Virus record (IMG/VR): IMGVR_UViG_2848385391_000003 | From: a virus | Taxonomy: Duplodnaviria > Caudoviricetes | Strand: one strand, 5' to 3' | Length of the DNA: 64,000 nt | In this document: positions 29,774-47,320 of the stretch, piece by piece | Layout of the letters: every line of letters starts with the position of its first letter | Numbering within the stretch: position 1 is the stretch's first letter | Program-made: the position numbers and the translations under genes | The notes under the pieces: generated by a model | Databases searched by the model: none | Told to the model about the DNA's origin: nothing | Seen by the model: only the letters and a program-made list of their open reading frames with translations

Positions 29774-30427
29774 ATGTCTTATGAATCACTGCTTATCTGG
29801 CAGTATAAGGGCAAGCCCAAAGCACGCGCCACCGCACAACTGATTGATCACTATTTTAGTGACACATGGCAGGGTCTCGCCGATCTACCCAATGCCCTCC
29901 ATATTGAGATCGCTTCAGGCAAAAACCTAGACCTAGTGGGCCAACATGTCGGGCAATCCCGTGTCTTGTCAGGTCTGGCCCCTCGCAGTTTGTTCGGTTT
30001 TGAGCGCGCACCAGGCGCTCAAGGTTTGAGTCGAACCGGTTTAGGCGGCGGCAAATGGTATCGTAAGGGCGATGTCATTACCGATTCCGTCGTGCTCGAT
30101 GACGATGATTTTCGCTTTCTCATCAAATGCCGCATCGCCAAAAACCATATGACGGGCACCCTCCCTGACATTACACACGCGCTGGATTTTATCTTTGGCG
30201 GGCAAGCCAGTGTCTATGATCAGTTCGACATGAGTTTCACCGTCACCATTCGCAGCGATCAAATCACCGCCTTTAAACGCTATGCAATTCAGACGCTCGA
30301 TATTCTGCCCCGACCCGCAGGCGTCAACGTCAACTATGTCGTTTTAGCCAACATTACCGCTTTCGGATTCGCCAACTCACCTGGCGCATTCGCTTTTAAC
30401 CATGGAAAATTTGCGAGGTATTTATGA
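29774..30427 (+). CDS. Baseplate wedge protein (DUF2612-like)
   Basis: LIWQYKGKPKA, GKNLDLVGQHVG, ILPRPAGV. Confidence 0.8.
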   Translation: MSYESLLIWQYKGKPKARATAQLIDHYFSDTWQGLADLPNALHIEIASGKNLDLVGQHVGQSRVLSGLAPRSLFGFERAPGAQGLSRTGLGGGKWYRKGDVITDSVVLDDDDFRFLIKCRIAKNHMTGTLPDITHALDFIFGGQASVYDQFDMSFTVTIRSDQITAFKRYAIQTLDILPRPAGVNVNYVVLANITAFGFANSPGAFAFNHGKFARYL

Positions 30428-31413
30428 CTCTTTATGCACGTCCTGATGAACACGTCTTTGCTCAGGGTGCGCGCCCTGGAGAAGTTCAACCCTTTCCCGA
30501 TCTTTCCAGAGGGTGGGGCGTTGCCTTTGACCAGACTGGCGGCATCCCACCGATGGAATGGTTTAATTTTATTGGCAAACGCGCTGATGAAGCCATTCGC
30601 TATCTGATGCAACGCGGCTTGCCCGAATGGTCTGAGACAGAAGACTATCCTGAAGGCAGTTATATTCAATATTCTGGTAAAACCTATCGCGCCAAAGTAG
30701 CGAATAAGGGTAAAACGCCTTCAACTCATTTAGCCGAATGGGAAGAATGGGGTCTTACGCGTGAAGCGCTCAATGCGCACTTTCACCCCAAAGATGGGGA
30801 GTTGGCTTGGTCCAAAATCACCAAAACGCCAACAACATTAGACGGTTACGGTATTACCAATGCCGCTACGGCTCAAGATGTGGAACACCGCTTCTCCGAA
30901 ATCCATCAGCGCTTTCATCCTAAAAATGGTCCATTGCCTTGGGCAAAAATTTCTGACAAACCCACAACGCTCAGCGGATACGGCATTACAGATGCTGCGC
31001 CCATTGCGAACCCCGCTTTCTCCGGACAGCCTACCGCACCCACTCCGTCAGCTCAAGACAGGAGTACCCGTATCGCTACCACCGCTTCCACCTGGGCCAC
31101 CCTTCTTAGCCTGTTTACTGGACCTGACCGACAATCCTTTCAAGGCAACGGGTTCCAGAAACTTCCAGGTGGCCTCATTCTCCAATGGGGTTTCACCTCT
31201 ACCCACGGCAATGGAATGTCTAATGTGATTTTCCCTGTCAAGTTTTCAACGAAATGTCTGGCCATTCATGGCACTCATCTCGGCACTGGATGTGCAACCG
31301 TCATCGAATATGTCGGGACTCGAACCAATATCGGCGCCACATTGCGCACTCTCGATGAAAATGCCATGACCCGCGCAGGATGGGGCCTTCATTGGTTTGC
31401 TATTGGACATTAA
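30424..31413 (+). CDS. Tail fibre protein
   Basis: Two PTTL.GYGIT.A repeats and C-terminal FQKLPGGLILQWG. Confidence 0.85.
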   Translation: MTLYARPDEHVFAQGARPGEVQPFPDLSRGWGVAFDQTGGIPPMEWFNFIGKRADEAIRYLMQRGLPEWSETEDYPEGSYIQYSGKTYRAKVANKGKTPSTHLAEWEEWGLTREALNAHFHPKDGELAWSKITKTPTTLDGYGITNAATAQDVEHRFSEIHQRFHPKNGPLPWAKISDKPTTLSGYGITDAAPIANPAFSGQPTAPTPSAQDRSTRIATTASTWATLLSLFTGPDRQSFQGNGFQKLPGGLILQWGFTSTHGNGMSNVIFPVKFSTKCLAIHGTHLGTGCATVIEYVGTRTNIGATLRTLDENAMTRAGWGLHWFAIGH

Positions 31414-31465
31414 TTTGCCCTCTCATGTCTATTCTTCTGTTTTCTATTTAAACCCACTTCATCGT

Positions 31466-31885
31466 ATGACTTTTTATTATTCAAAATCAGAACCCGGATT
31501 TTACTGCGTCGGGATACATGGCGATAACATCCCTAAAGATGCTGTCTCTATTACTCAAGAAGAGCACACCGCATTGCTCAATGCCCAATCCAAAGGTAAA
31601 TGGATCCAGTCTAATGAGAACGGCTACCCAGTGGCTGTTGACCCGCCTCCACTTACCCCTGAGGAGTGGGCCGACATTAATTTACGCTGTCGACAGGCTC
31701 GGTTGAGTCAAGCGGCTTTAAAAGTCGCTCCTTTACAAGATGCCGTAGACCTCAACATCGCCACGGATGACGAAAAACAGCTTCTCAAAGAATGGAAACT
31801 TTATCGAGTTGCTCTCAACCGCATTGAGCAGCACTCTAGCCTTTCCGCCGAGATCGAATGGCCTAAACCGCCTGATGAGAATTGA
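31466..31885 (+). CDS. Tail fibre assembly chaperone
   Basis: PLQDAVDL.IAT..E..L.EWK.YRV.LNRI..WP.PP. Confidence 0.88.
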   Translation: MTFYYSKSEPGFYCVGIHGDNIPKDAVSITQEEHTALLNAQSKGKWIQSNENGYPVAVDPPPLTPEEWADINLRCRQARLSQAALKVAPLQDAVDLNIATDDEKQLLKEWKLYRVALNRIEQHSSLSAEIEWPKPPDEN

Positions 31886-31903
31886 ACCCATTGATATTGT
31901 GTC

Positions 31904-31928
31904 GACCGCCTTAGAGCGGTCTTTTTTT
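31904..31928 (+). terminator. Intrinsic terminator before the lysis genes
   Basis: GACCGC-loop-GCGGTC followed by T7. Confidence 0.7.
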
Positions 31929-31947
31929 CGTCTACACACCTCTATAT

Positions 31948-32373
31948 ATGACCGACACCTTTGACAGGGCCACACTCGTTTCAGAGCTTAAACGCGATGA
32001 AGGCGAGCGCTTGAAACCCTACTTCGATACCGTCGGCAAAATCACCATCGGCGTCGGGCGCAATTTGACGGATGGGGGCATCTCTCAAAGCGAATCCGAG
32101 ATCCTTTTGCATAACGATATTGCACGAACGCTTAGATGGCTGGATCGGAATTTACCCTGGTGGCGCACGCTAGATACAGTGCGGCAACGTGTGCTCATCC
32201 ATATGGCCTTTAACCTGGGCGGCAATCTTCTGACCTTTGTTCATACTCTAGATGCCATGCAACGCAACGACTACGCAGCCGCGGCTAACGGCATGCTCGC
32301 ATCCAAATGGGCGAATCAGGTCGGCCAACGAGCACGGCGCCTAGCTAATATGATGCGCACCGGAAAAATTTAA
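31948..32373 (+). CDS. Endolysin, T4-type lysozyme fold
   Basis: DEG...Y.DT.G..TIGVGRNL (E-x8-D-x5-T triad); SKWA.QVG.RA. Confidence 0.9.
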   Translation: MTDTFDRATLVSELKRDEGERLKPYFDTVGKITIGVGRNLTDGGISQSESEILLHNDIARTLRWLDRNLPWWRTLDTVRQRVLIHMAFNLGGNLLTFVHTLDAMQRNDYAAAANGMLASKWANQVGQRARRLANMMRTGKI

Positions 32374-32389
32374 CTCTCAACATCAAAAA

Positions 32390-32680
32390 ATGAATCTTCA
32401 CGAACATGACCGAATGCTTGCCATATTGGCTGCGATGGGTGCTGTGCTTGGGATTGGTAAATTGCTCAATGGCGGCGAGAAAATTACCGCTCGGCTGATT
32501 ATCGGGCGCATGATTGTGGGTGCGGGCTTAAGCGTCGCCGCCAGCTCCACCCTCATGCTTCTGCCTGAACTTTCTCCGATCGCTGTCACAGGCCTCGGCG
32601 CAGCACTCGGCATTCTCGGCCAGTCCTATTTGGAAATGGCTGTACAACGCTGGTTTGGGAAACGCTCAAATGCTAACTAA
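32390..32680 (+). CDS. Holin
   Basis: 96 aa, several hydrophobic segments, basic C-terminus, lysis-cassette position. Confidence 0.8.
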   Translation: MNLHEHDRMLAILAAMGAVLGIGKLLNGGEKITARLIIGRMIVGAGLSVAASSTLMLLPELSPIAVTGLGAALGILGQSYLEMAVQRWFGKRSNAN

Positions 32681-33194
32681 TTGGCTTGCCGGTCCGTCGC
32701 GCCTATTGTGCGTCGCAGCAACCGCTTTCAGTTTTGGCGTAGGGTGCGCGGGTTTTTTGTATTACAACCCACGCATTCAGAAAGAACGCTCAGCGCTAGT
32801 GCACTATAAAGCTCAACTCACCATGGCCCAAGCTCAATTGATTGAAGCCCAAACCAAAGTCATCATCCAAACCGAAATTCAATACCGCGACCGCATCAAA
32901 ATCGTCAAAGAAAAAGGCGACACGATTATTAAGGAAGTGCCCATCTATGTTAATCAAGCTGATACTGACCATTTCGGCGTTAACGTTGGCTTCGTGCGCC
33001 ACCACAACGCAGCCTTTGCCAACGAGTCTGCCGGACCTGCCGCCCACTTTGACCGAGAACCCGCCGGAATTTCGCTTGCTGAGATTGCCGAAGTCAACGC
33101 TTTTAACGCCAACGTCTGCTGGCAATGGCGGGAACAAGCGCTTAGATTAAGAGCATTTTACCGGCAGTTACAGCATATACACTCTATGCCATAA
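32670..33194 (+). CDS. Inner-membrane spanin (Rz-like)
   Basis: N-terminal TM and coiled coil, hosts an embedded lipoprotein ORF. Confidence 0.75.
   Translation: MLTNWLAGPSRLLCVAATAFSFGVGCAGFLYYNPRIQKERSALVHYKAQLTMAQAQLIEAQTKVIIQTEIQYRDRIKIVKEKGDTIIKEVPIYVNQADTDHFGVNVGFVRHHNAAFANESAGPAAHFDREPAGISLAEIAEVNAFNANVCWQWREQALRLRAFYRQLQHIHSMP
32947..33150 (+). CDS. Outer-membrane spanin (Rz1-like lipoprotein), embedded
   Basis: MLIKLILTISALTLASC signal with lipobox LASC, Pro-rich mature part, +1 frame inside Rz. Confidence 0.8.
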   Translation: MLIKLILTISALTLASCATTTQPLPTSLPDLPPTLTENPPEFRLLRLPKSTLLTPTSAGNGGNKRLD

Positions 33195-33390: not shown

Positions 33391-36300
33391 TTACGCTAAC
33401 ACAGCACCTCGCTGCTTTAACAGCTTACCATTCATTTCGCTTAACCCTTCCACTCCTTCTATTAACGCTCCTCTCACTGTCAAAAAATTATGACCCGTAC
33501 TCCACCTGAAATACGCCTTATATTTCCCCTCTTCTTTTCGCAATTCCCATTGCCGAACAGAGTTATCTAGACTACCTATCCCTAAATAGTGAATACCCGA
33601 TGCCTCTTTCCAGGCAAGGCTTGCAATCGGTCCACTATCTTCAATCAGTATTTGGCACTCTCCCGTTTGGGGGTCCCACAGCCGCACCGTAGTGTCAGAA
33701 CTCCCCGACGCTACCTGATCTCCTCTCGGCGAATACGCTACGCTAAAAACTCTATCTGTATGCCCTTCTAACTTCTGCTTCTGCTCTCCGCTTTCTATAT
33801 CCCACAGCCGCACCGTCTTATCTACACTCCCCGACGCGACCTGATCTCCTCTCGGCGAATACGCTACGCTATAAACTCTATCTGTATGCCCTTCTAACTT
33901 CTGCTTCTGCTCTCCGCTTTCTATATCCCACAGCCGTACCGTCTTATCTTCACTCCCCGACGCGACCTGATCTCCTCTCGGCGAATACGCTACGCTCAAA
34001 ACTCTATCTGTATGCCCTTCTAAATTCTGCTTCTGCTCTCCGCTTTCTATATCCCACAGCCGTACCGTATTGTCTTCACTCCCAGACGCGACCTGATCTC
34101 CTCTCGGCGAATACGCTACGCTATAAACTCTATCTGTGTGCCCTTCTAAATTCTGCTTCTGCTCTCCGCTTTCTATATCCCACAGCCGCACCGTATTGTC
34201 CCAACTACCCGACGCTACCTGATCTCCTCTCGGCGAATACGCTACGCTAAAAACTATATCTGTATGCCCTTCTAACTTCTGCTTCTGCTCTCCGCTTTCT
34301 ATATCCCACAGCCGTACCGTATTGTCTTCACTCCCAGACGCTACCTGATCTCCTCTCGGCGAATACACTACGCTCAAAACTCTATCTGTGTGCCCTTCTA
34401 AATTCTGCTTCTGCTCTCCGCTTTCTATATCCCACAGCCGCACCGTATTGTCCAAACTCCCCGACGCTACCTGATCTCCTCTCGGCGAATACACTACGCT
34501 CAAAACTATATCTGTATGCCCTTCTAACTTCTGCTTCTGCTCTCCGCTTTCTATATCCCACAGCCGCACCGTATTGTCCAAACTCCCCGAAGCGACCTGA
34601 TCTCCTCTCGGCGAATACGCTACGCTAAAAACTACATCTGTATGCCCTTCTAACTTCTGCTTCTGCTCTCCGCTTTCTATATCCCACAGCCTTACCGTAT
34701 TGTCAGAACTCCCCGACGCTACCTGATCTCCTCTCGGCGAATACGCTACGCTCACAACTCCATTTGTATGCCCTTCTAACTTCTGCTTCTGCTCTCCGCT
34801 TTCTATATCCCACAGCCGCACCGTATTATCTTGACTCCCCGACGCTAACTGATCTCCTCTCGGCGAATACGCTACGCTAAAAACTATATCTGTATGCCCT
34901 TCTAATTTCTGCTTCTGCTCTCCGCTTTCTATATCCCACAGCCGCACCGTAGTGTCAGAACTCCCAGACGCTACTTGATCTCCTCTCGGCGAATACGCTA
35001 CGCTCACAACTCCATTTGTATGCCCTTCTAAATTCTGCTTCTGCTCTCCGCTTTCTATATCCCACAGCCGCACCGTAGTGTCTAAACTCCCCGACGCTAC
35101 CTGATCTCCTCTCGGCGAATACGCTACGCTAAAAACTACATTTGTATGCCCTTCTAAAGTACGGAGTTTTTCCCAATTCGAGGTCCCGTACACGCTAATC
35201 TTACCGTTTTCAAGCCCTATGGCACAGGTTTTCCCATCGGGTGAATACACACAAGAATATACTTTGCTCTCTCCTTGGATATAGGGCCATTCACCAAACT
35301 GCGCCCCTTCCATTTTTGCCTCGCTTAAATTCGCCTGGCGTAACCAACTTTTGCGTAAATTCACCTTCCTTAAATCTGCCCCTTGCAGTTCAGCAGAATC
35401 AAATAACCCATAGCTCAAATCCGCTCCAGGTATCCGGATTCTATTTAAATCCCACCCAGTAAACGGCACCCCTGCTTTCACCAAGATCGTCATCGCATTC
35501 GCCGCACCCCGACTCACAAAATCTGTCTGCGTTGAGCCTTTGAGCCAGACCAGCAGGGGTTTCACCAGCGCTTTGTTCTGTTGCACACGCTCCACTAAAA
35601 ACCGCTGAACCCCTGCATCCTCCACCAGATTAAATCGGTTCAATAATCCTTCCGGATTTACCTGATCCGAGTCATTCAGCGTTTTCCAGAGCGCCTGGAC
35701 ATTCCTCATTCCGCTCGAGGATTCGCATGCGCCCCCTCCTGCCGCCTCTTCCAGTTCTTGCCACATCCCACGCGCCACCAGATAATCCTGAATCGATTTA
35801 TGGATAAACCGATATTGATCTCCTTGGCGAATTAACGGCGCATTAAACCGCAACAGCCGCGTCTTTTCTTCTGCGTCCCCTAAATACTGCGCTCGCCAAC
35901 CCCCTTTTTTTCCATCCTTCGCTTCTGAATACGTGACCGACACCAACTGCTCTTCATACATCGCTAACGCCAGATTTTGACTATACTCCAAGCCGTGCAG
36001 TGTAAATTCATCATCCAGATCCTCAAACGCTTCCTGCTCCTTAGGTTTGAGTGGGATGCGCGCCAACCTTTCCTGTGATCGGTTGAACCAATTTTCCACG
36101 GACCTCTCATATAACCCCATACGCGTCAGCTTCGAGTGCTCTTCCTCCGCTTTTAGGCTCGGCAACACCTCTAACGTCATTTTCAACATAAACGGCGTGC
36201 GCACTAATTCTTTTAACTCTGCGATTTCTTTAAATAACTGTTTGTAATCCTCTGCTTTCCACTTCGGTTTCGTATAACTCACATATTGATCAATATAGTG

Positions 36301-38454
36301 CTCTATCGATGCATCCGAAAACGACGACAACCGATATTCTTCCAATGCGCCAGGTCTGCCTATTGGATGAAACTTATTTTGATAATGATCTCCTAAATAT
36401 TCCGGCCGGCTGCTGATAATCACTTTCGCTTGCCAACGCTCTAGTTTATTATCCGCATAGAAGGCGCGTGAACGTTGCGCTATTTCGTCATACCCATCCA
36501 GAATAAAAATAAACCGACCACCTTTACGTAAATTTTCTATCTCGGGTTTCGATAAACCTTGTTCTTCCAGATATTGTTCGATCAAATTTCTGCCAGGGTT
36601 CTCTAGCGTAGCCAATGATATGAATAACGGGATTGGCCTGTCTTGGGTATTTTCCGCTTGGATATAGTCTTTCCATAACCGACGTGCCATGTGACGATTA
36701 AATGTTGACTTACCGCTCCCCCCTTCACCTAACAGCAATAAGACTTTTTTATCCGAATCCAAAAACGCATTGACCTTCTCTTCTAAATCAAAATGTTCTG
36801 TCGCCTCCGCTGTGAGCTTACCTTGCGGTGCAACATACATCGCCAAACCATCCTGGATTTCTCCAAGCTCTTCCCAGTCCTTGAAATATTCTGCCTGGAT
36901 ACTTTCACCTAAAATCGCAAGTGGCTCTTTCTTCGATTTCAGTTCTTTTTCTTGCTGATGCTTCAATTGTTGATGGAGTTGCTGCACGGTAAGGGCAAGC
37001 TCGTTGTGTAACGCTTTCCGTATATCATCGAAAATACTGTCTACGAGTTGGGTAAACTCAAGCCCATCAAACTTTGAATCGGTCTTCAAATGCGAAATAC
37101 AATCACTGTACCCCTGCCAAAACTTATTCAGAAACGTTTGGGCTTCGTCACTACCCGCTAACAGCCGCTCGATCAGCTTAAAGAGCACCCCATGCCGACT
37201 TTGATTCGCATACACTTCTCGCCCTGCTTGCACTTGTTCTTCAAAGCGCGGTATGTCTTCCATCCGAACCGCTGTCGCTGAAACAAAATCTGACAAGCAC
37301 GCATCGTAGCTATTCAAGGTTAACGCAACCGGAATAATCCCATGCTTATCTTTAAGCTCTTCTGCTCGGATTTGCAAAAATGCCATTTCTGTCAATACAT
37401 GATGGAACCCGGCCTTATAGCTTTCCTCTTGCGAGAATTCTCTGACCACCTCACGTATCGCCATCGCGCTATCTTGCTCACTATCTTTCAGATACGCTTC
37501 TCGATCTTTGCGATACGCCTCTCGCAGTTTCTGATAAAAGTGGCCATAATCCGACCACTTTAGATAACTTCCCAATACCTCAGAACAACACACCGTGACC
37601 TTATCGACCGGGGTCACATCGCCTCGCAACCGCCCCGGTAATAGACACAGCTGATTGGTTAAAATATCTTCTAGCTTGCCGTCCTTTTTCAGATCTCTCG
37701 AAACACTTGAATACGGTTGCCCCATCGGCGTTTGATCCGAATACAAAATCACTTGAATTTGAGAGAGCTTTTCAATTAAATATTTAGAGGTAGAGGCCTC
37801 AGCCTTTCCGTGGGCTGGATTGTCATGCGCATATACTAAAAACAGGCTGGGTTTATTCGCGACCTTTAAGGCTCCCAGCGTCGACAGCGCCTTTTCAAAC
37901 AGGTAATCCATCTGCTTGCTTTTTTCTTCGATAGACACATCAACCTCTCGTTGCGGAGGCGTTAGACTCAGTTTTGAAGGCCGCGCATTTGCAACCCACT
38001 CTTTTGTTGGATCCAGTTGTTTTCTATTCCCCTCGCTCACACTCTCATTTTTAATTAAAAATGAGCTGTACCGTGCGCTTATTTGTTGATGCAACATTCG
38101 CGCGCCAGTTTGCTTCATATCCATATAAGGCGCGTACTCTAACGCCTTTTTATAATTCTCCTCAGCGCCGAATTTATCGTCTTTGCGTAGAAAAGTGCCA
38201 TAGTAAAAATGGCTTGCGGCAAGTTGCTCTCTTATTTTTCTTAAGTCAGACTCATTTTGAGTGCTTTGCAGCACGTCTTCTGCTTTGCGAATGCCTCCTT
38301 CAAAGCAGTCCTTTGCTTTCTCTAGATCTCCTTGCTTCTCATAGCGCGTTGCTTCCTCTCGAAGCTTATTAGCTGCTGACAAGCCAGAAACTGAAATGGG
38401 TGTCGTATTAACCTCTCTACTCCCAATCCCCCTCAATGCATTCAAATTAAACAT
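33391..38454 (-). CDS. NLR-like protein: TPR-like, TIR/SEFIR-like, NACHT, pentapeptide, WD40 x14
   Basis: Walker A GEGGSGKS, Walker B FILDGYDE, ADLS/AELQ/ANLS pentapeptides, 12 GH..WD repeats plus two degenerate blades. Confidence 0.92.
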   Translation of the reverse strand: MFNLNALRGIGSREVNTTPISVSGLSAANKLREEATRYEKQGDLEKAKDCFEGGIRKAEDVLQSTQNESDLRKIREQLAASHFYYGTFLRKDDKFGAEENYKKALEYAPYMDMKQTGARMLHQQISARYSSFLIKNESVSEGNRKQLDPTKEWVANARPSKLSLTPPQREVDVSIEEKSKQMDYLFEKALSTLGALKVANKPSLFLVYAHDNPAHGKAEASTSKYLIEKLSQIQVILYSDQTPMGQPYSSVSRDLKKDGKLEDILTNQLCLLPGRLRGDVTPVDKVTVCCSEVLGSYLKWSDYGHFYQKLREAYRKDREAYLKDSEQDSAMAIREVVREFSQEESYKAGFHHVLTEMAFLQIRAEELKDKHGIIPVALTLNSYDACLSDFVSATAVRMEDIPRFEEQVQAGREVYANQSRHGVLFKLIERLLAGSDEAQTFLNKFWQGYSDCISHLKTDSKFDGLEFTQLVDSIFDDIRKALHNELALTVQQLHQQLKHQQEKELKSKKEPLAILGESIQAEYFKDWEELGEIQDGLAMYVAPQGKLTAEATEHFDLEEKVNAFLDSDKKVLLLLGEGGSGKSTFNRHMARRLWKDYIQAENTQDRPIPLFISLATLENPGRNLIEQYLEEQGLSKPEIENLRKGGRFIFILDGYDEIAQRSRAFYADNKLERWQAKVIISSRPEYLGDHYQNKFHPIGRPGALEEYRLSSFSDASIEHYIDQYVSYTKPKWKAEDYKQLFKEIAELKELVRTPFMLKMTLEVLPSLKAEEEHSKLTRMGLYERSVENWFNRSQERLARIPLKPKEQEAFEDLDDEFTLHGLEYSQNLALAMYEEQLVSVTYSEAKDGKKGGWRAQYLGDAEEKTRLLRFNAPLIRQGDQYRFIHKSIQDYLVARGMWQELEEAAGGGACESSSGMRNVQALWKTLNDSDQVNPEGLLNRFNLVEDAGVQRFLVERVQQNKALVKPLLVWLKGSTQTDFVSRGAANAMTILVKAGVPFTGWDLNRIRIPGADLSYGLFDSAELQGADLRKVNLRKSWLRQANLSEAKMEGAQFGEWPYIQGESKVYSCVYSPDGKTCAIGLENGKISVYGTSNWEKLRTLEGHTNVVFSVAYSPRGDQVASGSLDTTVRLWDIESGEQKQNLEGHTNGVVSVAYSPRGDQVASGSSDTTVRLWDIESGEQKQKLEGHTDIVFSVAYSPRGDQLASGSQDNTVRLWDIESGEQKQKLEGHTNGVVSVAYSPRGDQVASGSSDNTVRLWDIESGEQKQKLEGHTDVVFSVAYSPRGDQVASGSLDNTVRLWDIESGEQKQKLEGHTDIVLSVVYSPRGDQVASGSLDNTVRLWDIESGEQKQNLEGHTDRVLSVVYSPRGDQVASGSEDNTVRLWDIESGEQKQKLEGHTDIVFSVAYSPRGDQVASGSWDNTVRLWDIESGEQKQNLEGHTDRVYSVAYSPRGDQVASGSEDNTVRLWDIESGEQKQNLEGHTDRVLSVAYSPRGDQVASGSEDKTVRLWDIESGEQKQKLEGHTDRVYSVAYSPRGDQVASGSVDKTVRLWDIESGEQKQKLEGHTDRVFSVAYSPRGDQVASGSSDTTVRLWDPQTGECQILIEDSGPIASLAWKEASGIHYLGIGSLDNSVRQWELRKEEGKYKAYFRWSTGHNFLTVRGALIEGVEGLSEMNGKLLKQRGAVLA
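33650..35160 (-). repeat. 12 tandem 126-bp WD40-coding repeats
   Basis: gatctcctctcggcgaatac recurs every 126 bp; 42-aa unit LEGHTxxVxSV(A/V)YSPRGDQVASGSxDxTVRLWDIESGEQKQ. Confidence 0.97.
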
Positions 38455-39407: not shown

Positions 39408-42062
39408 CTATATTGCGCCTCGTTGTCTTAACAAAGCAGCATTTTGAGAGCTGAGATTAAGGGCATTTTGGATGAGGGCACCTGATGCAGTAAGCCCGTC
39501 TTGTCGTGAAGTCCAATCTAACAAAATTGGACCTATTTCACCTGAGCGATAAGGGACTTGCCAAAGACGAATAGTTTTGTCCTCTCCTGCCGTAGCCAAT
39601 AGGGCCACTTCATCCTGTGTGGGTTTCCACACAATAGTACTAATACCACCCACACAGCCTTTGAGTACCGCTTGACAATCGCCTGTTAAAACAGACCATA
39701 ACCTGATTGTTTGATCCCTACTTCCAGACGCGAGCCAATGACCATCTTTTGAGAACGCGACACAATTCACACTATCCGTATGCCCAGTATAGGTGTGAGC
39801 CAGAGCGCGCTCCCCCCTCATGTGCCACAGCTTCACCGTACCATCATCACAAATAGACGCGAGCCAATGACCATCGTTTGAGAATGCGACACGATACACA
39901 CCATCGTCATGCCCGACGTAGGAGTAAGCCATAGCTTGTTCACCAACCACGTGCCACAGCTTCACTGTATTATCCCCACTTCCAGATGCAAGCCACTGTC
40001 CATCGTTTGAGAATGCGACACTGCTGACAATATCGGTATGCCCGATATAAGAGTGAGCCAAGGTACGCTCGCCCCCTGCGCACCACAGCTTTACCGAATT
40101 ATCTGAACTTCCAGATGCAAGCCACTGCCCATCTTTTGAGAACGCGACACAATTCACACTATCCGTATGCCCAGTATAGGTGTGAGCCAGAGTGCGCTCC
40201 CCGTCCATGCGCCATAACTTCACCGTCTTATCCCTGCCTCCAGACGCGAGCCACTGACCATCGCTTGAGAACACAGCACTAATCACCATATCCGTATGTC
40301 CGGTATAGGTGTGAGCCAGAGTGCGCTCTCGGTCCACGCACCATAACTTTACCGTCTTATCCCAACCCACAGACGCGAGCCACTGACCATCGCTTGAGAA
40401 CGCAGCACTATTCACCATATCATCATGCTCAACATAGGAGAAGGGCATAACCTGTTCACCGGTCACGCGCCACAGCTTCACCGAATTATCTAAACTTCCA
40501 GATGCAAGCCACTGACCATCGCTTGAGAACGTGACACTATTCACCCTATCCGTATGCCCAGTATAGGTGTGAGCCAGAGTGCGCTCACCTTCCACGTGCC
40601 ACAACTTTACCGTAGTCCTACCTCCAGATGCCAACCATTGCCCATCGTTTGAGAATGCGACACTATTCACTCCATGTGGATGCCCAATATAAGTGTGAGC
40701 CAGAGTGCGCTCACCCTCCACGTGCCATAAATTCACTGTATGACCATTTCCATGTGGAGGCCATTGCCAATCGTTTGTTCCAGATGCGAGCCATTGCCCA
40801 TCTTTTGAGAATGCAACACTGTATACCTTGTTCTTATGTTCGGTATAGGAGTGGGCCAAGGCACGTTCGCCTGCTACGTGCCACAGCTTCACCGTCTTAT
40901 CATCGCTACCAGATGCGAGCCAATGGCTATCATTTGAGAATGCGACACTTGTCACCATACTCATATGCCCGGTATAGGTGTGAGCCAGAGTGCGGTCGCC
41001 CTCTACACACCACAGCTTCACTGTACAATCCCCACCTCCTCCAGATACTAGCCACTGACCATCGTTTGAGAATGCTACACTTGTCACCACACCCGTATGC
41101 GTATAGGAGTGGGCTAGCGCGCGTTCGCCCTCCACGCACCACATCTTTACCGTCTTATCCCCACTTCCAGACGCGAGCCGCTGTCCATCACTTGAGAATG
41201 CGACACTATACACATAGCTCGTATGCCCTTCATAAGTATGAATTTTTTGGAAATTCTTTGTTTCATAAAGATGGATAGCATTGCCTTCTGTCACAGCCAG
41301 CCAGCGCCCAACTGGCGAATAACAACACGCATAAACAGCGCTTTCCATTTCTAAAGAGGGCTTTTCACCAAAATCTACTCCTGCTAAATCAGCACCATCT
41401 AAATTAACACCATTCAGCCAAGTATCGGTCCAATTTACGCCTGTTAAATCGGCTCCTTGAAATTGCGTAGAATCAAACACTCCATAACTTAAATCTGCCC
41501 CAGGCACACGTATCCCTTGGAGATCCTTATTATTGAATTGCGCCCCTGCCTTCACTAATAGCGTCAGCGCGTTAGCTGCTGTAGCCTGCACCTCTTCTGT
41601 TTTGGACCGTTCCACCCAGTTCAATAATTTCTCTTTTAGCGAAATGTCTTGCTGGACTTTTTCTTGCAAAAATTTAAGTATTTCTGGATCATTAACAAGA
41701 CATATCAGCCCAAAAAGTGCAGATTTCTCAACGACCTGATCGAGTCGCCCTGAGTCAGATAACTTTTGCAATTGACTCAATGTGAATTTCTTTAACTCTA
41801 CATCCGAACTTATTAGAGCTCCTTGATATTGCGCCTGAATCCTTTCTTTGATCAGATGTAGCTTCAGAGCAGGTGAATCCATGGGTTCACCATTATGAGT
41901 CGGTGTTGTCAGTGCTTTAAGCAAAGCCTGACGGCTCGAAAAATCGAGCAGCTTTTCTATTTCTTGCCGAATTTCTGCGGGAAGCGAGAGAAAACCGGAT
42001 TCTGTGGATTTTTGTGTTACTGGATAGTGCAGATTGACAGAGCTTGAAATAGGGTTCAGCAT
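39408..42062 (-). CDS. F-box-like, pentapeptide, WD40 x14 protein
   Basis: FLSLPAEIRQEIEKLLDFSSRQAL near the N-terminus; GADLSYGVFDSTQFQGADL; 12 related ~43-aa WD40 units plus two divergent ones; start ATG 42062 or TTG 42080. Confidence 0.88.
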   Translation of the reverse strand: MLNPISSSVNLHYPVTQKSTESGFLSLPAEIRQEIEKLLDFSSRQALLKALTTPTHNGEPMDSPALKLHLIKERIQAQYQGALISSDVELKKFTLSQLQKLSDSGRLDQVVEKSALFGLICLVNDPEILKFLQEKVQQDISLKEKLLNWVERSKTEEVQATAANALTLLVKAGAQFNNKDLQGIRVPGADLSYGVFDSTQFQGADLTGVNWTDTWLNGVNLDGADLAGVDFGEKPSLEMESAVYACCYSPVGRWLAVTEGNAIHLYETKNFQKIHTYEGHTSYVYSVAFSSDGQRLASGSGDKTVKMWCVEGERALAHSYTHTGVVTSVAFSNDGQWLVSGGGGDCTVKLWCVEGDRTLAHTYTGHMSMVTSVAFSNDSHWLASGSDDKTVKLWHVAGERALAHSYTEHKNKVYSVAFSKDGQWLASGTNDWQWPPHGNGHTVNLWHVEGERTLAHTYIGHPHGVNSVAFSNDGQWLASGGRTTVKLWHVEGERTLAHTYTGHTDRVNSVTFSSDGQWLASGSLDNSVKLWRVTGEQVMPFSYVEHDDMVNSAAFSSDGQWLASVGWDKTVKLWCVDRERTLAHTYTGHTDMVISAVFSSDGQWLASGGRDKTVKLWRMDGERTLAHTYTGHTDSVNCVAFSKDGQWLASGSSDNSVKLWCAGGERTLAHSYIGHTDIVSSVAFSNDGQWLASGSGDNTVKLWHVVGEQAMAYSYVGHDDGVYRVAFSNDGHWLASICDDGTVKLWHMRGERALAHTYTGHTDSVNCVAFSKDGHWLASGSRDQTIRLWSVLTGDCQAVLKGCVGGISTIVWKPTQDEVALLATAGEDKTIRLWQVPYRSGEIGPILLDWTSRQDGLTASGALIQNALNLSSQNAALLRQRGAI

Positions 42063-42202
42063 AAATATTTTATTGTTCAATTAAAGTAAAATCATCTGAT
42101 GAATTTTCATAAGCCCTGACCCAGGACTTATTCATGACTCACCCATGTGAGTCGCCAGATTTTACAGAAAAAATACAAATTAATTAAACCCGCCAGCTTC
42201 TA

Positions 42203-43273
42203 TCATTTCGTCGGCTCTACTTTCTCGCCTCGACGATTGCGCACATAGTGTTCCGTCATCTTGATGCTTGTATGCCCCAACTGCTTTTGCGCTCGACGAA
42301 TATCCCCCGATAACTCCGCCTTGTCTGTTCCCGCTTTCGCTCGTAAGTCTCGAAATTGATATTCCGCTGCGCATAAGCCTGCCGCTGTGCGCGCTTGCGC
42401 AAACATCGCTTGCAGCGTCTTTAACGCAACGCACTCTCCTAACTCATTCACCACCAAATCAACATGCCCTGTGTTGTACTTGGCTTTTCTCTTTAATATG
42501 CGCTCTAACGTCTTCTCCAGATGACCGGTGATCGCTATCCTCAGTTTCGTCTTCGTCTTGTTTTGCTGCACCAGCAGACACCCTTCTTTGATATCCTGCT
42601 CTGTCATCTTTAAAATATCCGATGGGCGCTGACCCGTCAGATACGCTAAATCCATCGCATCCCGCAACGGTTGCCGTGCTTTCGCATAAATCGCGCTATA
42701 TTCACTGTCTTCGATATAGACTTTACGCCCGTCTTCTCGATAGCCCTTGATCCCCAAACACGGATTCGGCTGATCCGTATACCCCCATTCTCTTGCCTTA
42801 TTCCAGATGTGCGAGAATAACGACTTCTCTCGATTCGCTCTGACCTGCCCTTCGCTCCCATTGACGGCCTGACCTGCCTCTTTCAGTTTTCTGACAGTCT
42901 CTTTCACGCGCCAATCTAAAAACTGACGGATATGGATCGGCTTGATCTCGTCCATTAATGCCGGCGGATTATCAAAGAATTCCAGCAATTTAACCAGCTC
43001 CGCCAAATTGTCTTTCTGCGTGCGAGGCGCTTTTGTTGGGATCACGTCTTGTCTATATCTTTGTGCTGCATGACGAAACGTTACCCTGACTCGATCCTCC
43101 AATTGGTTTTGACTATCCAGCTCTGTCCACTTTTGCAGCGCTTCTAGATAATCTGGCCCCAGCGCGATCTCCTGTCTCGAGGAATGGCCCGTGTCGTAGT
43201 AATAATAGGTTTGCCCGCTACGCTGTACCCTCGCTCGCATCCGAGGCGGTAAATTAAACGCGGTTTGGCTCAT
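42203..43273 (-). CDS. int: Tyrosine integrase
   Basis: TGQRPSD (R), FRDLRAK, LGHT..MTEHY catalytic residues. Confidence 0.95.
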   Translation of the reverse strand: MSQTAFNLPPRMRARVQRSGQTYYYYDTGHSSRQEIALGPDYLEALQKWTELDSQNQLEDRVRVTFRHAAQRYRQDVIPTKAPRTQKDNLAELVKLLEFFDNPPALMDEIKPIHIRQFLDWRVKETVRKLKEAGQAVNGSEGQVRANREKSLFSHIWNKAREWGYTDQPNPCLGIKGYREDGRKVYIEDSEYSAIYAKARQPLRDAMDLAYLTGQRPSDILKMTEQDIKEGCLLVQQNKTKTKLRIAITGHLEKTLERILKRKAKYNTGHVDLVVNELGECVALKTLQAMFAQARTAAGLCAAEYQFRDLRAKAGTDKAELSGDIRRAQKQLGHTSIKMTEHYVRNRRGEKVEPTK

Positions 43274-43538
43274 CTTTTACCTGGATCGCTAACTTCGGTT
43301 GCCAACTTTTCGCTTTCACTTCTTCTGACCGACCCTCTACCGCGGCACGCGTCACAATCGGCCGACCTCGCTGGTTCATAAAAAATACGATCTCCTGCTC
43401 TTTTAAATAGGCTTCCTGCCTTTCGTATTTACTCGCCTTGCGGGCATATGCGGTTCCCGCTTCCAGCGTCTTGCCCCGCCTGATCCCTGTCAGCTCATCC
43501 ACTTGCGCTTCGGTCAAAAAAACTTCACTCATTTCCAC
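43254..43538 (-). CDS. Excisionase-like protein (DUF4224-type)
   Basis: FLT..VDELTG..Q..YL..GRPIV.R; overlaps the integrase start. Confidence 0.75.
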   Translation of the reverse strand: MEMSEVFLTEAQVDELTGIRRGKTLEAGTAYARKASKYERQEAYLKEQEIVFFMNQRGRPIVTRAAVEGRSEEVKAKSWQPKLAIQVKDEPNRV

Positions 43539-44410: not shown

Positions 44411-44911
44411 GACTTTTCTTTAAATTAATTTTGGTAAACGCTAAACATCATCAGCGCAATCACTATCGTGAGCGCTCCCCCCATACGCGTCGCCAACTGC
44501 GCAAACGGCATCAGGTGCATCCGATGCGCTGAGGTCAAAATCGCCATGTCCCCCACGCTACCCATCCCGCTATGGCAAACATTGATAAGGGCGCTTTCTA
44601 TCGGGTTTAATCCCGCCCAACGACCTACAATCAGACCCACCAGCGCCAACGTCAGCACCGTCACCACAATCGTGATTAAATAAACCGGCGTTAAAACCGA
44701 AAGTAAGACCTGCCAAGGCGTTAAGGTCAGTCCGAGCACAAACAGAACCGGATACGCCGCCGCTTTGGTAAAAAAGTGGTGCATCAGATACGCCCCTTCT
44801 TCCAGTCCGGATGAAAGCGTCACCGTGAGTTTGATCAGGACCGCCAAGCCCAGCATCACCAACGGCGCGGGCCAACCGGTCAATTGATGTACCAAAACCC
44901 CCACCATATAG

Positions 44912-46413
44912 CTCAGGATTACCCACAAATTTTAGTCACACTGGTGCATGATTTGAAACATTTTGGTGGCCTCATGCAAAGCCATGAACCCACGCCACAA
45001 TACAGTAGGGCCGGGCGGGAGATCATGCTTGCGCGCTAGGTATCCGCCGAGTTTAGCGATCCACAGAATGGCCTGATTCAAAGTAGGAGGATCGCTAGGA
45101 GGATGCTTGGTATTGTGAGCACGGCAATATAAAGCTTGCCATTCAATGGGCTGAAGTAAAACTTCACAAGAGATTTCAGGATTACTTCGACCTAGTAAGG
45201 TGGCATACAAAATACGCCAAGCGATGACCGTAAATAATGCAGTAGAGCGGACAAAGCGATCTAAGCTACCCAACTGACGATGTTCAATTTGGCAGCCGCT
45301 TTTGAGGATACGATGCCAAGTTTCGATAGTCCAACGGCGCGCATACCACGTGAGTCTTTCCAATGCTTGTTCTTGGGTATGCGTTGGCACTGAACTTAAT
45401 AGCATCCACTCGATTGGATGAGTCCCTTCAGGTGGATGGCTTTCCAATGCCCAAATCGCAAACACCTCGACATTAGGCAGATTAGGATTAGGATGATTGC
45501 ACGGCCGGCGAAGCGTAACGGGCGCGCATTTTATAGCCAGCTGAGCGATGCGCTGTGCACAGTTGCTACGAGCAGGCACGTTAAGTTCTATACAGCCTAA
45601 TTCGGAAGCAGATGCCATAGCTTCCCACAAGTATTGATCAGGATGATCCACTTTGCGATTCCAAGAGGCACGAATTAACCAATCGACTCCATCTGGACGC
45701 GGTGCAACAAATAAGTCGTAAATATCTGCCTCGCGATCACACACGCTAATCATGTGCGTTTTAGGGCATCCAGCTTTGAGAGCCGTCAATTGCTTTACGC
45801 CCTCGAGCCACTTTACGCTTTCTTTTTCATCAATCGACCTCTTAGCGCGCTGTTTCTTTTTGCCCAGCTCACTCAGATCGCGTGCCCACGCTTTCATCCC
45901 CAGTACGCCTAGCGGCAATCCTTCCGGGGTCACTGCCAACATACTGTGCATCATGAATCCACGTACATGTTTGCTGCTGCAATAACCCAGACCTTCCGTG
46001 GCCGGTAGATGCGTTAAATTAAATTCTGTCGTGTCTTGCACCGCCAACACAACTGGCACTTGATTCATTCGGTTTTGTGTCTGAGCTATATGCGAGCCCA
46101 ACACCCCATCTGTATCGACCTGCTTGTTGTCGAAGAATCGATACGCTGATTTTAACTGCGCCTTCGTCAGTGTGTGAGGAAATGAACCATGCGGCATCTT
46201 CGATAACTGTTCCGCCAATAATATCAGCCGTTTCGTCAGCCGCGCATCTCCTAAGTGGGCTTCGCTAAATTCAGTATTCGCCCAACTCTCCAAATCACTT
46301 TCAGCCACCATTGCTTTGCCTTTTTAGCAGGTAAAACTGCAATGTTTGTACAGGATACAATTATTTACAACTTCTCTAGCGATTCTTCCGACAAATTTGT
46401 GGGTAATCCTGAG
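44912..46413 (-). mobile_element. IS4-family (IS50/Tn5-like) insertion sequence, 1502 bp
   Basis: Perfect 21-bp IRs CTCAGGATTACCCACAAATTT; 10-bp TSD CACCATATAG (44902-44911, 46414-46423); empty site at 1015-1024. Confidence 0.95.
44932..46311 (-). CDS. IS4-family DDE transposase
   Basis: WA..EF..A.LGD.RL, VQDTT, DREAD, YARRWTIETWHRILKSG, LGGYL.RK.D.PPG. Confidence 0.95.
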   Translation of the reverse strand: MVAESDLESWANTEFSEAHLGDARLTKRLILLAEQLSKMPHGSFPHTLTKAQLKSAYRFFDNKQVDTDGVLGSHIAQTQNRMNQVPVVLAVQDTTEFNLTHLPATEGLGYCSSKHVRGFMMHSMLAVTPEGLPLGVLGMKAWARDLSELGKKKQRAKRSIDEKESVKWLEGVKQLTALKAGCPKTHMISVCDREADIYDLFVAPRPDGVDWLIRASWNRKVDHPDQYLWEAMASASELGCIELNVPARSNCAQRIAQLAIKCAPVTLRRPCNHPNPNLPNVEVFAIWALESHPPEGTHPIEWMLLSSVPTHTQEQALERLTWYARRWTIETWHRILKSGCQIEHRQLGSLDRFVRSTALFTVIAWRILYATLLGRSNPEISCEVLLQPIEWQALYCRAHNTKHPPSDPPTLNQAILWIAKLGGYLARKHDLPPGPTVLWRGFMALHEATKMFQIMHQCD

Positions 46414-47320
46414 CACCATATAGAGGCTCAAAGCCACCATCCCCACCGAGGCCAACGACTCCATCAAAGCGGCGGGTGTTGAATCGGTGGGCCGGCTTTT
46501 TAAATGCCCTGCGGACAGCTTTTGACCTAGTTGGCTCAGGTCCGAGTTAAGCTGCCCAAGTCGATGCAGCATCCCAGCACATGCCACCGCCGTCAGATTC
46601 CCCAGCACGATTGGCGGCATCACCTGTGCAAATAATTCTGGCTGGGACGTGTGTAAAATCGCCGCATAGCCCAGAGTCAGCGGAATCGCCCCCTCACCCA
46701 GGCCACCCGCCATGATCGGAATCACGATAAAGAAGAAGGTGTGGTGTGCGCTTAGTCCCAACGCCATCCCCGTCAGGGTGCCGACGATTGCCGCAGCGAT
46801 AGAACCCGCAGCAAGCGGCACAAAGAGTCTCACGAAACCTTTAATCAAAAGACTCCGCTCCATACTCAAAATACCGCCTACCACCACCGTGACCGTAAAC
46901 AGGTACAAAATATTCGTGCTCTCCCAAAACGCTCTGATCGAGCTTTCCAGCTCTATCGGCATGAGTTCGCTATGCACCCAATACGACGGCAGCAGCACGG
47001 TCACCATCACGGGACCACCCAAGTACCGCAGAACCGGTATATGTTTGCCGATCTCTGCGCAGCTAAAACCTAATACCGCCACCACCGCCAACATCACCGA
47101 GAGGTCTCCTGGCACCTCACCTAACGCGATAAAACTCAGAATGCATAACCAAATCAGCCCAAATACCGGCAACGGAATCATCCCGATATGAACCTTCTCC
47201 GGTTTTTGCCGACTTACTCGGCTGGGTACTGCACTCAGCCAGCTGCTTAAACGTTTGGCATAATGAAATAGGGTTTGCATGATTCAGCCTCCAAGTGCTC
47301 ATCGAGCCTGTGTGACAGCT

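Follow-up and report, generated by a model that had tools for sequence, protein, structure and literature searches.

We report the analysis of a gene for a WD40-repeat protein that lies in a window of 64,000 nucleotides (the whole stretch of DNA analysed here), recorded in IMG/VR as the virus IMGVR_UViG_2848385391_000003 (Duplodnaviria; Caudoviricetes). Near its N-terminus the encoded protein carries a motif that resembles the start of an F-box, and an initial annotation, made from the sequence alone, had taken the protein for a prophage-encoded effector that directs the proteins of a eukaryotic host to degradation by way of the SCF (Skp1-cullin-F-box) ubiquitin ligase. As we read the sequences, the likeness is real but partial: the family of paralogues to which the protein belongs keeps the loop and the first two helices of the F-box and nothing of the remainder.

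The WD40 gene and its family

The gene is encoded on the minus strand (Table 1). Its reading frame is open to a TTG codon, which would give a protein of 890 residues (39408..42080), but the ATG at 42062 is the likelier start, because conservation amongst the paralogues begins at that methionine and the ESM Atlas record of the protein starts there too. Residues are numbered from this ATG throughout, so that the F-box-like motif spans residues 24-50, which are residues 30-56 of the TTG-started open reading frame (ORF). The peptide quoted in the initial annotation, FLSLPAEIRQEIEKLLDFSSRQALLKA, is encoded exactly at 41913-41993, though on the minus strand, and read as plus strand the same bases make no sense.

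The first 117 residues match 13 places in the 2,795,004-base genome that holds the window, referred to below as the own genome. These 13 paralogues comprise 11 intact ORFs of 736-950 residues, one stump of 128 residues (L016) and one member with two in-frame stops (the L007/L014 locus). The pattern that had been quoted for the motif, L..LP.EI...I...L....L, fits the window gene in its core, LP.EI...I...L, whereas its first L is off by one place and its last by three; genome-wide, the full pattern fits one paralogue only and not the window gene. A lone occurrence of the core would not be beyond chance. Nevertheless, the relaxed core LP.E[ILV]...[ILV]...L has 13 matches in the 1,118,625 residues of the own genome (4,317 stop-free segments), as against a mean of 1.3 and a maximum of 3 in 20 shuffles. 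Because 11 of the 13 matches fall in the 13 paralogues, and because L27-P28 is invariant in all 23 aligned family members, we regard the motif as a conserved feature and not as noise.

The leader in front of the motif is rich in Ser, Thr and Pro, as first described, and its positions M1, I5 and S6 are invariant, or nearly so, across the family. In the AlphaFold2 (AF2) model, whose predicted local distance difference test score (pLDDT) is 78, the N-terminal module of residues 23-110 is modelled at about 85-90, with the helices 29-38 and 41-52, which carry the motif LPxEIxxxIxxxLD, at 77-92; helix 2 is followed by a conserved T-x-T-x-N-G-E-P hairpin (residues 55-60) and then by more predicted helices. 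Between the linker and the WD40 array lies a pentapeptide-repeat segment that the initial annotation had passed over. Its count of 14 WD40 blades agrees, as an approximate figure, with 13 Pfam stretches and with 13 x[KRN]xW motifs plus a first blade that lacks the Trp, and the blades probably form two seven-bladed propellers. At the DNA level the repeat has a period of 129 bp, with copies 73-76% alike (Tandem Repeats Finder, TRF). That the protein has no NACHT domain was confirmed by Pfam searches: Pfam and NCBIfam reveal no NACHT or P-loop family in residues 1-240, the remainder being WD40.

Two smaller features accompany the gene. A 216-residue ORF at 40628-41278 on the plus strand, opposite the WD40 repeats, is repetitive and rich in His, Arg and Met, and we regard it as a by-product of the repeats and not as a gene. 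Between the stop codon of the integrase gene and the start of the WD40 gene, at 42136-42153, two perfectly complementary arms of 7 bp flank a loop of 4 bases (minus strand: GACTCAC ATGG GTGAGTC). This inverted repeat may be a terminator or a recombination site; it is kept at the paralogous locus, and TTCTGTAAAATCTGG precedes it.

Table 1. Features of the WD40 gene and of its surroundings, in window coordinates
Feature	Position	Strand	Basis and remarks
WD40-protein gene, 884 residues	39408..42062	minus	ORF list and translation; ATG at 42062; ORF open to TTG at 42080
Leader, residues 1-22	41997..42062	minus	Begins with conserved MLxPISxS; rich in Ser/Thr/Pro/Asn/Gln; no acidic residue before E21; modelled as disordered, pLDDT about 40
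F-box-like motif, residues 24-50	41913..41993	minus	Sequence, AF2 helices, in-register hhalign; invariant L27-P28, predicted helix 1 (29-38) and helix 2 (41-52)
Lineage-specific helical N-terminal module, residues 23-110	41733..41996	minus	No counterpart in the NACHT paralogues; AF2
Helical linker, residues 111-173	41544..41732	minus	Homologous to the post-NACHT region of NACHT-pentapeptide-WD40 paralogues; BLASTP to residues 932-991 of the neighbour
Pentapeptide-repeat segment, residues 174-232	41367..41543	minus	Pfam PF00805, E 3.7e-10; NCBIfam pentapeptide models match weakly
About 14 WD40 blades, residues about 235-839	39546..41360	minus	Pfam WD40, E 1e-143, 13 stretches; 13 x[KRN]xW motifs; TRF
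C-terminal tail, last 45 residues	39411..39545	minus	Common to the NACHT paralogues, ends ...LLRQRGAI; BLASTP reaches the last residue of both proteins
Neighbouring paralogue, 1687 residues: helical N-terminus, NACHT, pentapeptide repeats, WD40	33391..38454	minus	Pfam NACHT 1.2e-10, Pentapeptide 1.3e-5
Right end of prophage A: tail fibre, tail-fibre assembly, lysozyme, small protein with signal-peptide motif	30424..33194	plus	PHROGs
Left end of prophage B: integrase and excisionase-like genes, directly upstream of the WD40 gene	42203..43538	minus	Pfam Phage_integrase, DUF4224; PHROG integrase, excisionase

The closest named homologues of the protein are from Mycoavidus sp.; they are 66-73% identical in the N-terminal part and are labelled only 'WD40 repeat' or 'pentapeptide repeat'. 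Judged by these homologues, the source organism would be an endofungal, Mycoavidus-like member of the Burkholderiaceae. Mycoavidus has been described as a genus of endofungal Burkholderiaceae inhabiting Mortierellaceae (PMC5877345). With a profile of the N-terminal 130 residues the family was found in 7 of the 41 genomes searched, namely the own genome, all five others of the genus (with 4, 6, 7, 10 and 36 matches) and, with 13 matches, a single genome from a second genus of the same taxonomic family; the 34 other related genomes gave no match. The seven genomes together have roughly 90 members. The same profile has 32 matches at E<=0.001 amongst 1.84 billion representative proteins, none of them longer than 936 residues. 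Of these, 24 have a best match that starts at one of residues 1 to 3 and one (P0025) has its start at residue 13, while the other seven align from mid-profile, six being fragments that start at residue 1 and one starting at residue 15-16. A protein-cluster look-up of 10 family representatives returned no names. One RNA run shared a small part of the sequence words; its contigs align only on the WD40 repeats, at 90-95% identity, and none on the N-terminal part, and they therefore come from a relative or a paralogue and give no evidence either way on expression of the window gene.

Likeness to the F-box in sequence and predicted structure

The N-terminal module was compared with F-boxes from bacteria of the same class, in which the Pfam F-box scores above its cut-off in 32 of 400 scored genomes. 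The reference set consisted of 31 segments, taken from 30 fetched loci (one of them in the own genome) and from the second canonical F-box ORF of the own genome. Aligned to this set by hhalign, residues 19-75 of 46 family sequences give a Prob of 81.4-82.7% and P values of 1.2e-5 to 9.5e-6, and the register is exact: family residues 22-47 fall on F-box columns 3-28, 26 columns in all, with LPxEI on LPxEI. As controls, the linker region of the family gives a score of 8.8 and the alignment read in reverse one of 9.2. Once gappy columns are trimmed, the family itself scores 26.5 (P 9.5e-6), a value that none of 300 column shuffles reaches, the highest standing at 18.2. This control repeats an earlier one in which 197 of 200 shuffles scored 15.8 or less and three scored 128-134 on 10-15 columns with an end gap; we take those three to be numerical artefacts of gappy columns. 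The same register is obtained with the 19 closest relatives (P 2.3e-4), with the 17 most divergent members (P 1.4e-6) and with the window sequence alone (P 4.8e-4). With a P of about 1e-5 and no shuffle at its level, the proposal that the N-terminus resembles the start of an F-box is thus borne out.

The most divergent paralogue, L020, is the only one to match the Pfam F-box, at 15.6-16.9 bits against a cut-off of 20.5 and over profile positions 1-23 only; it also touches PRANC (E 0.074) and F-box-like (E 0.27). In a six-frame search of the genome with the Pfam F-box it ranks third (16.9 bits), directly behind the two canonical F-box genes of the genome. A hidden Markov model (HMM) of the 31 bacterial segments places two paralogues third and fourth of 13,515 segments, with E values of 0.077 and 0.084; the first and second ranks went to sequences from which the HMM had itself been built, and are therefore circular. 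The canonical genes lie at G000:C1:2506226-2507116 (+, 296 residues) and G000:C1:590103-590738 (-, 211 residues), and their products are 41% identical to each other. In both, the F-box occupies residues 3-46, at 29.5-43 bits over whole Pfam profiles, and is followed by a helical region that has no Pfam family; the two proteins are rich in Lys, Asn and Ile.

AF2 puts two helices where helices H1 and H2 of the F-box belong, and the models were compared with known structures. For a 130-residue model, Foldseek gave nothing at E<1 and the best VIA match, with a Z of 5.0, was to an unrelated chain; no F-box/WD40 adaptor was listed, the sole SCF entry being Cul1 (1ldk_A, Z 3.5), which is not an F-box. 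For a 62-residue model of residues 19-80 (built from 23 sequences, pLDDT 79), Foldseek returned nothing at E<3, and VIA, run against 48,161 chains, gave no Z above 3.2. The top 12 VIA rows include the D domains of beta-TrCP (Z 3.2, root-mean-square deviation (rmsd) 6.0, 48 aligned) and Cdc4 (Z 3.2, rmsd 4.8, 52 aligned), and amongst them too the start of the Cdc4 F-box in its Skp1 complex (1nex_B 270-304), aligned to model residues 1-35 with a Z of 2.5, an rmsd of 3.0, 35 residues aligned and 26% identity; all three are tied with unrelated rows. Re-alignment of the model to 8 PDB chains added nothing. Amongst the viral models of BFVD, 7 of the best 50 Foldseek rows are named F-box proteins, all with E>1; those at ranks 9, 21, 28 and 39 have an rmsd of 1.3-1.9 over 27-31 columns, and those at ranks 16, 22 and 44 one of 4.7-11.4. 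The ESM Atlas gave no usable feature match, and its structure rows all have a TM of 0.41 or less.

Skp1, the expected partner of an F-box, is absent from the own genome and from 14 control genomes. As a separate observation, giant-virus contigs of IMG/VR (L065, L070, L076; L068, L069, L074, L075) encode complete Skp1 homologues of 154-176 residues, and on giant-virus contigs of 1.8-2.5 Mb the Skp1 frame is broken near the C-terminus, as if by short introns. The intronless homologues were picked by a short degenerate motif, and 120 homologues were listed.

Relation to the NACHT genes and to the flanking prophages

From residue 111 to its C-terminus the window protein is homologous to the C-terminal 755 residues of its neighbour (42% identity over 785 columns, E 2e-157, BLASTP). 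This homology, which starts only at residue 111 (117 in TTG numbering), had been overlooked by the initial annotation, as had the paralogous family. The own genome, of 2.8 Mb, has 74 NACHT-domain loci, mostly ORFs of 1200-2000 residues with WD40 repeats, whose strand follows the chromosome half; in the reduced genome of an endosymbiont such an expansion is extreme. Reports on Mycoavidus have already described the NACHT-pentapeptide-WD40 architecture and its occurrence in Mortierellomycota as well (PMC11291939, PMC9815663), and one of them terms the role of the NLR-like genes common to Mycoavidus and its host an open question (PMC11291939). In the neighbour, the WD40 array (33674-35157) consists of 11.8 copies of a 126-bp unit that are 92% identical in DNA and free of indels (TRF), which suggests recent homogenisation or expansion of the repeats in that NACHT gene.

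A maximum-likelihood tree of the linker and pentapeptide region was built by a quick search from 86 rows (12 of the family, 71 with a P-loop upstream and 3 others), leaving out the 128-residue stump, which lacks the region. The 12 family rows stand on one side of a branch with an SH-aLRT of 99.9 and the 74 other rows on the other, and midpoint rooting nests the family clade amongst the NACHT genes. The single clade argues that the family arose once, when a module of 110 residues replaced the N-terminal domain and NACHT of an NLR-like gene; on the evidence of this tree, the family is a NACHT-less branch of single origin, born by domain replacement.

Such a descent invites the explanation that the protein never leaves the bacterium and is an intrabacterial, NACHT-less accessory of the NLR-like repertoire, that is, a sensor, decoy or regulator. 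Its WD40 part would see a ligand derived from phage or host, its N-terminal module would couple to the NACHT paralogues or to another bacterial partner, and the likeness to LPxEI would be convergence or chance. The homology of residues 111-884 to the NACHT neighbour, the nesting of the family amongst 74 NACHT paralogues, the location between prophages and the want of a significant F-box match by Pfam or by fold all speak for it, as does the co-oriented NACHT gene that at least 4 of the 13 paralogues have about 1-2 kb downstream (1784830, 1877803, 1904121, 1925967). However, with 74 NACHT genes in 2.8 Mb such adjacency is partly expected by chance, and 9 of the 13 paralogues are without such a neighbour. 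A likeness of convergence or chance also sits poorly with a profile-profile match that is in register with the F-box and above all 300 shuffles, and with the ranking of divergent paralogues directly behind true F-box genes across the genome. Nor do known defence systems help it: in PADLOC-DB 2.0 the candidate model HEAT-ARM_XIII matches both the window protein and its NACHT neighbour through their WD40 repeats, a weak E2 match, PDLC00863 (E 8.2e-4, 17.5 bits, no stretch above threshold), also lies on the WD40 repeats, and no defence model beyond these two was found. We consider a purely intrabacterial role rather unlikely, though a serious competitor.

The gene stands between two prophages. 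Prophage A, with terminase, tape measure, baseplate, tail fibre and lysozyme genes, ends at 33194, and prophage B runs from the integrase at 42203 through excisionase, SSB, RecE/RecT, terminase and portal genes; the 9-kb gap between them is filled by the NACHT gene and the WD40 gene. This gene pair recurs before another copy of the integrase, where the NACHT part is 98.7% identical and is followed by the paralogue L009; the pair may therefore move along with the phage, or as part of a duplicated segment. No att repeats were found at the far prophage ends, either by short-word BLAST of four integrase-side junctions or by a search for TTCTGTA[AC]AAT[CT], a motif that stands upstream of some paralogues. 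An integrase is the direct neighbour of only 2 of the 13 paralogues, and an excisionase-like remnant that of a third; the other 10 adjoin neither. With the gene between two prophages, no att repeat and so few paralogues beside an integrase, the description 'prophage-encoded' is not borne out.

The prophages themselves, at 1-33194 and 42203-64000, are related, their terminases being 97.5% identical, and form part of a series of at least four, with integrases 93-100% identical, within about 140 kb of chromosome. At the integrase-excisionase end of each stands a gene for a 2-hydroxycarboxylate transporter (PF03390), a gene present in about 18 copies in the genome; the copy at 538-1893 is intact, and that of prophage B (44425-47280) is split by a Tn5-type transposase gene (44932-46311).

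With an integrase gene that ends 123 bp upstream of the ORF, one might ask whether the WD40 gene is simply a decaying NACHT-WD40 remnant that lost its 5' half, for example through integration of the adjacent prophage, and has no function of its own. The stump and the member with in-frame stops would fit such decay. The remaining 11 of 13 paralogues are, however, intact, and their N-terminal module is conserved and without equivalent in the NACHT genes; two genera (7 genomes) retain the family, which forms a single well-supported clade, and 10 of the 13 paralogues have no integrase or excisionase beside them. Decay is accordingly a very improbable account of the gene.

Possible export, interpretation and comparison with known systems

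The leader of the family is unusual for the genome. Of the 13 family members 12 show the pattern M-x(1-3)-[IV]-[SN], and so do 51 of the 81 WD40-like ORFs, as against 49 of 930 other ORFs of at least 300 residues; the first Asp or Glu stands at a median position of 30 in the family and 23 in the WD40-like ORFs, as against 9 in the others, and Ser, Thr, Pro, Asn and Gln make up 45% of the first 25 residues, as against 27%. Many NACHT paralogues have near-identical leaders (MLPINPSQ..., MSPINPSQ..., MLPISGSN..., MLTPING...), free of acidic residues and rich in Ser, Pro, Asn and Gln; that of the neighbour lies at 38380-38454. These properties resemble the published rules for type III secretion signals, and we infer that the leader is a candidate signal of this kind. 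Three FHIPEP/SctV genes are present in the genome, and about 5-15 kb or less from each lies a yscC-type secretin that scores above its curated cut-off; together they amount to three injectisome-type loci, and type III components have also been reported in Mycoavidus (PMC5877345). A PIP/hrpII-type box (TTCG-N15/16-TTCG) was found upstream of none of the 13 paralogues. Given the endofungal affiliation, the three SctV+SctC loci and the two canonical F-box genes, the proposal of an effector acting on a eukaryotic host is plausible.

Our tentative interpretation, in which we place somewhat less than even confidence, is that the gene encodes a WD40 effector that is translocated and bears a minimal two-helix F-box-like element for docking on Skp1, and that it was born by domain replacement from an NLR-like gene. 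The leader would send the protein by way of one of the three type III systems into the cytoplasm of the fungus, where the two WD40 propellers would bind a host protein; the two-helix element would dock on host Skp1 and so either offer the bound protein to the SCF ubiquitin ligase of the host or keep it away from that enzyme. Of this scheme, the export, the binding to Skp1 and any consequence for host proteins are what we infer from the evidence above.

A considerable body of observations weighs against this interpretation. With the Pfam F-box clan (PF00646, PF12937, PF09372) the window gene has no match at E<=10, whether in residues 1-100, in residues 1-240 or in the six-frame search of the genome, so that the F-box HMM match implied by the initial annotation is wanting, and 11 of the 12 other paralogues likewise have none at E<=10. 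A sequence-profile search of the PDB at E<=10 gave 7 chance-level matches, none of them an F-box protein, and there is no eukaryotic F-box protein amongst the 32 matches in the search of 1.84e9 proteins. The profile alignment ends at F-box column 28, after 26 columns, and the second half of the F-box (the end of helix 2, helix 3, V-x-K-x-W and the conserved Trp) is replaced by the conserved hairpin, the family consensus after helix 2 reading ALTTVTRNGEP...KLHL, without a Trp; the paralogue alignment thus bears out the caveat, entered at the outset, that the usual V(C/S)K.W end of the motif is not evident. At two positions of helix 1 most members carry charged residues where the 31 bacterial F-boxes have hydrophobic ones (EIREEIEK as against EILLKIFS-type), and this genome, to judge from its two canonical F-box genes, retains a complete F-box where it has one. 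All fold matches of the predicted models, by Foldseek, VIA and BFVD, are below significance and tied with unrelated rows. Furthermore, since the leader recurs in most NACHT paralogues, it may be an ancestral trait and not a signal for export, and the paralogues lie in prophage-rich regions, as often with defence genes.

Several of these points would be met if the protein were a translocated effector whose N-terminal module is not an SCF adaptor and binds a secretion chaperone or another host factor, the WD40 part sequestering or scaffolding host proteins without ubiquitination. The leader and the type III systems speak for this explanation, expansion and variation in copy number are typical of effector families, and a half F-box without its Trp-bearing part and with a charged helix 1 would then be no difficulty, nor would the failure of the whole 130-residue module to match any F-box/WD40 adaptor (best Z 5.0, to an unrelated chain). 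Against it stands the in-register F-box signal above all shuffles; and two-helix F-boxes, according to work on the poxviral proteins, suffice for Skp1 binding, with most contacts coming from helix 1 and the preceding loop (PMC4353913). We judge such a non-ubiquitinating effector improbable.

Host control by endofungal Burkholderiaceae is largely unknown, and we know of no characterised Mycoavidus effector. If the F-box interpretation is true, the family would offer a concrete route from the bacterium to the fungal ubiquitin system, by way of an immune-receptor scaffold re-used as an effector; if it fails, the analysis has still defined an N-terminal module peculiar to this lineage, together with a branch without NACHT, of single origin, within an NLR-like expansion that ranks amongst the largest seen in so small a bacterial genome. 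In a bolder form, the proposal is that an NLR scaffold was turned into injected SCF receptors, the NACHT switch being swapped for a two-helix F-box. Through their diversifying WD40 propellers the 13-36 paralogues would then each mark a different fungal protein for ubiquitination, or shield it from that fate. Bolder still, the common leader would mean that the entire superfamily enters the fungus: about 87 genes, 74 NACHT proteins amongst them, roughly a tenth of the genome, and the occurrence of NLR-like genes in both Mortierellomycota and the endosymbiont would be explained. This is a speculative extension that we hold to be unlikely.

Amongst the nearest parallels to the proposed effector are the eukaryotic SCF receptors Cdc4, Fbw7 and beta-TrCP. 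The domain order of Cdc4 and beta-TrCP, two proteins that the initial annotation had named, is also that of the window protein: all have, from N- to C-terminus, an LPxEI helix, a helical linker and a WD40 propeller. The eukaryotic F-box/WD40 receptors have 7-8 blades. In contrast, the window protein has 14, with a pentapeptide segment before them, aligns over only 26 F-box columns without a third helix or the conserved Trp, scores below the Pfam thresholds and comes from a bacterial host. An F-box shortened to its first helices is also found in the poxviral ankyrin/PRANC proteins, and L020 touches the PRANC profile, as noted above; the poxviral element is, however, C-terminal and joined to ankyrin repeats, whereas the predicted element of the family is N-terminal and joined to WD40 repeats.

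Amongst bacteria, the Parachlamydiaceae have been reported to possess expanded families with an N-terminal F-box and repeats, type III signals in the first 20 codons and a birth-and-death mode of expansion (PMC4209131). Their NEX1a and NEX2 families, as described there, resemble the window family in belonging to an obligate intracellular bacterium, in being multi-copy with the order (candidate) type III signal, F-box and repeats from the N-terminus, and in a copy number that varies strongly between close relatives. These families, Legionella AnkB and the Agrobacterium and Ralstonia F-box proteins all have F-boxes that Pfam recognises, joined to leucine-rich, tetratricopeptide or ankyrin repeats, whereas the window family combines a degenerate F-box with WD40 repeats, a fungal host and a scaffold from NLR-like genes. 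In the library of papers that was searched, no publication mentions both Mycoavidus and the F-box, and we did not find the architecture of F-box-like element, pentapeptide repeats and WD40, or the host kingdom, in print.

Within the own genome and its relatives two further comparisons can be made. The two canonical F-box proteins share with the family an N-terminal helix of LPxEI type, and both are part of the profile to which the family aligns; unlike the window family, they have no leader and no WD40 repeats after the F-box. The Mycoavidus NACHT-pentapeptide-WD40 proteins, for their part, have a homologous linker, pentapeptide repeats, WD40 array and C-terminal tail, and it is in place of their NACHT and long helical N-terminal domain that the window family carries its F-box-like module of 110 residues.

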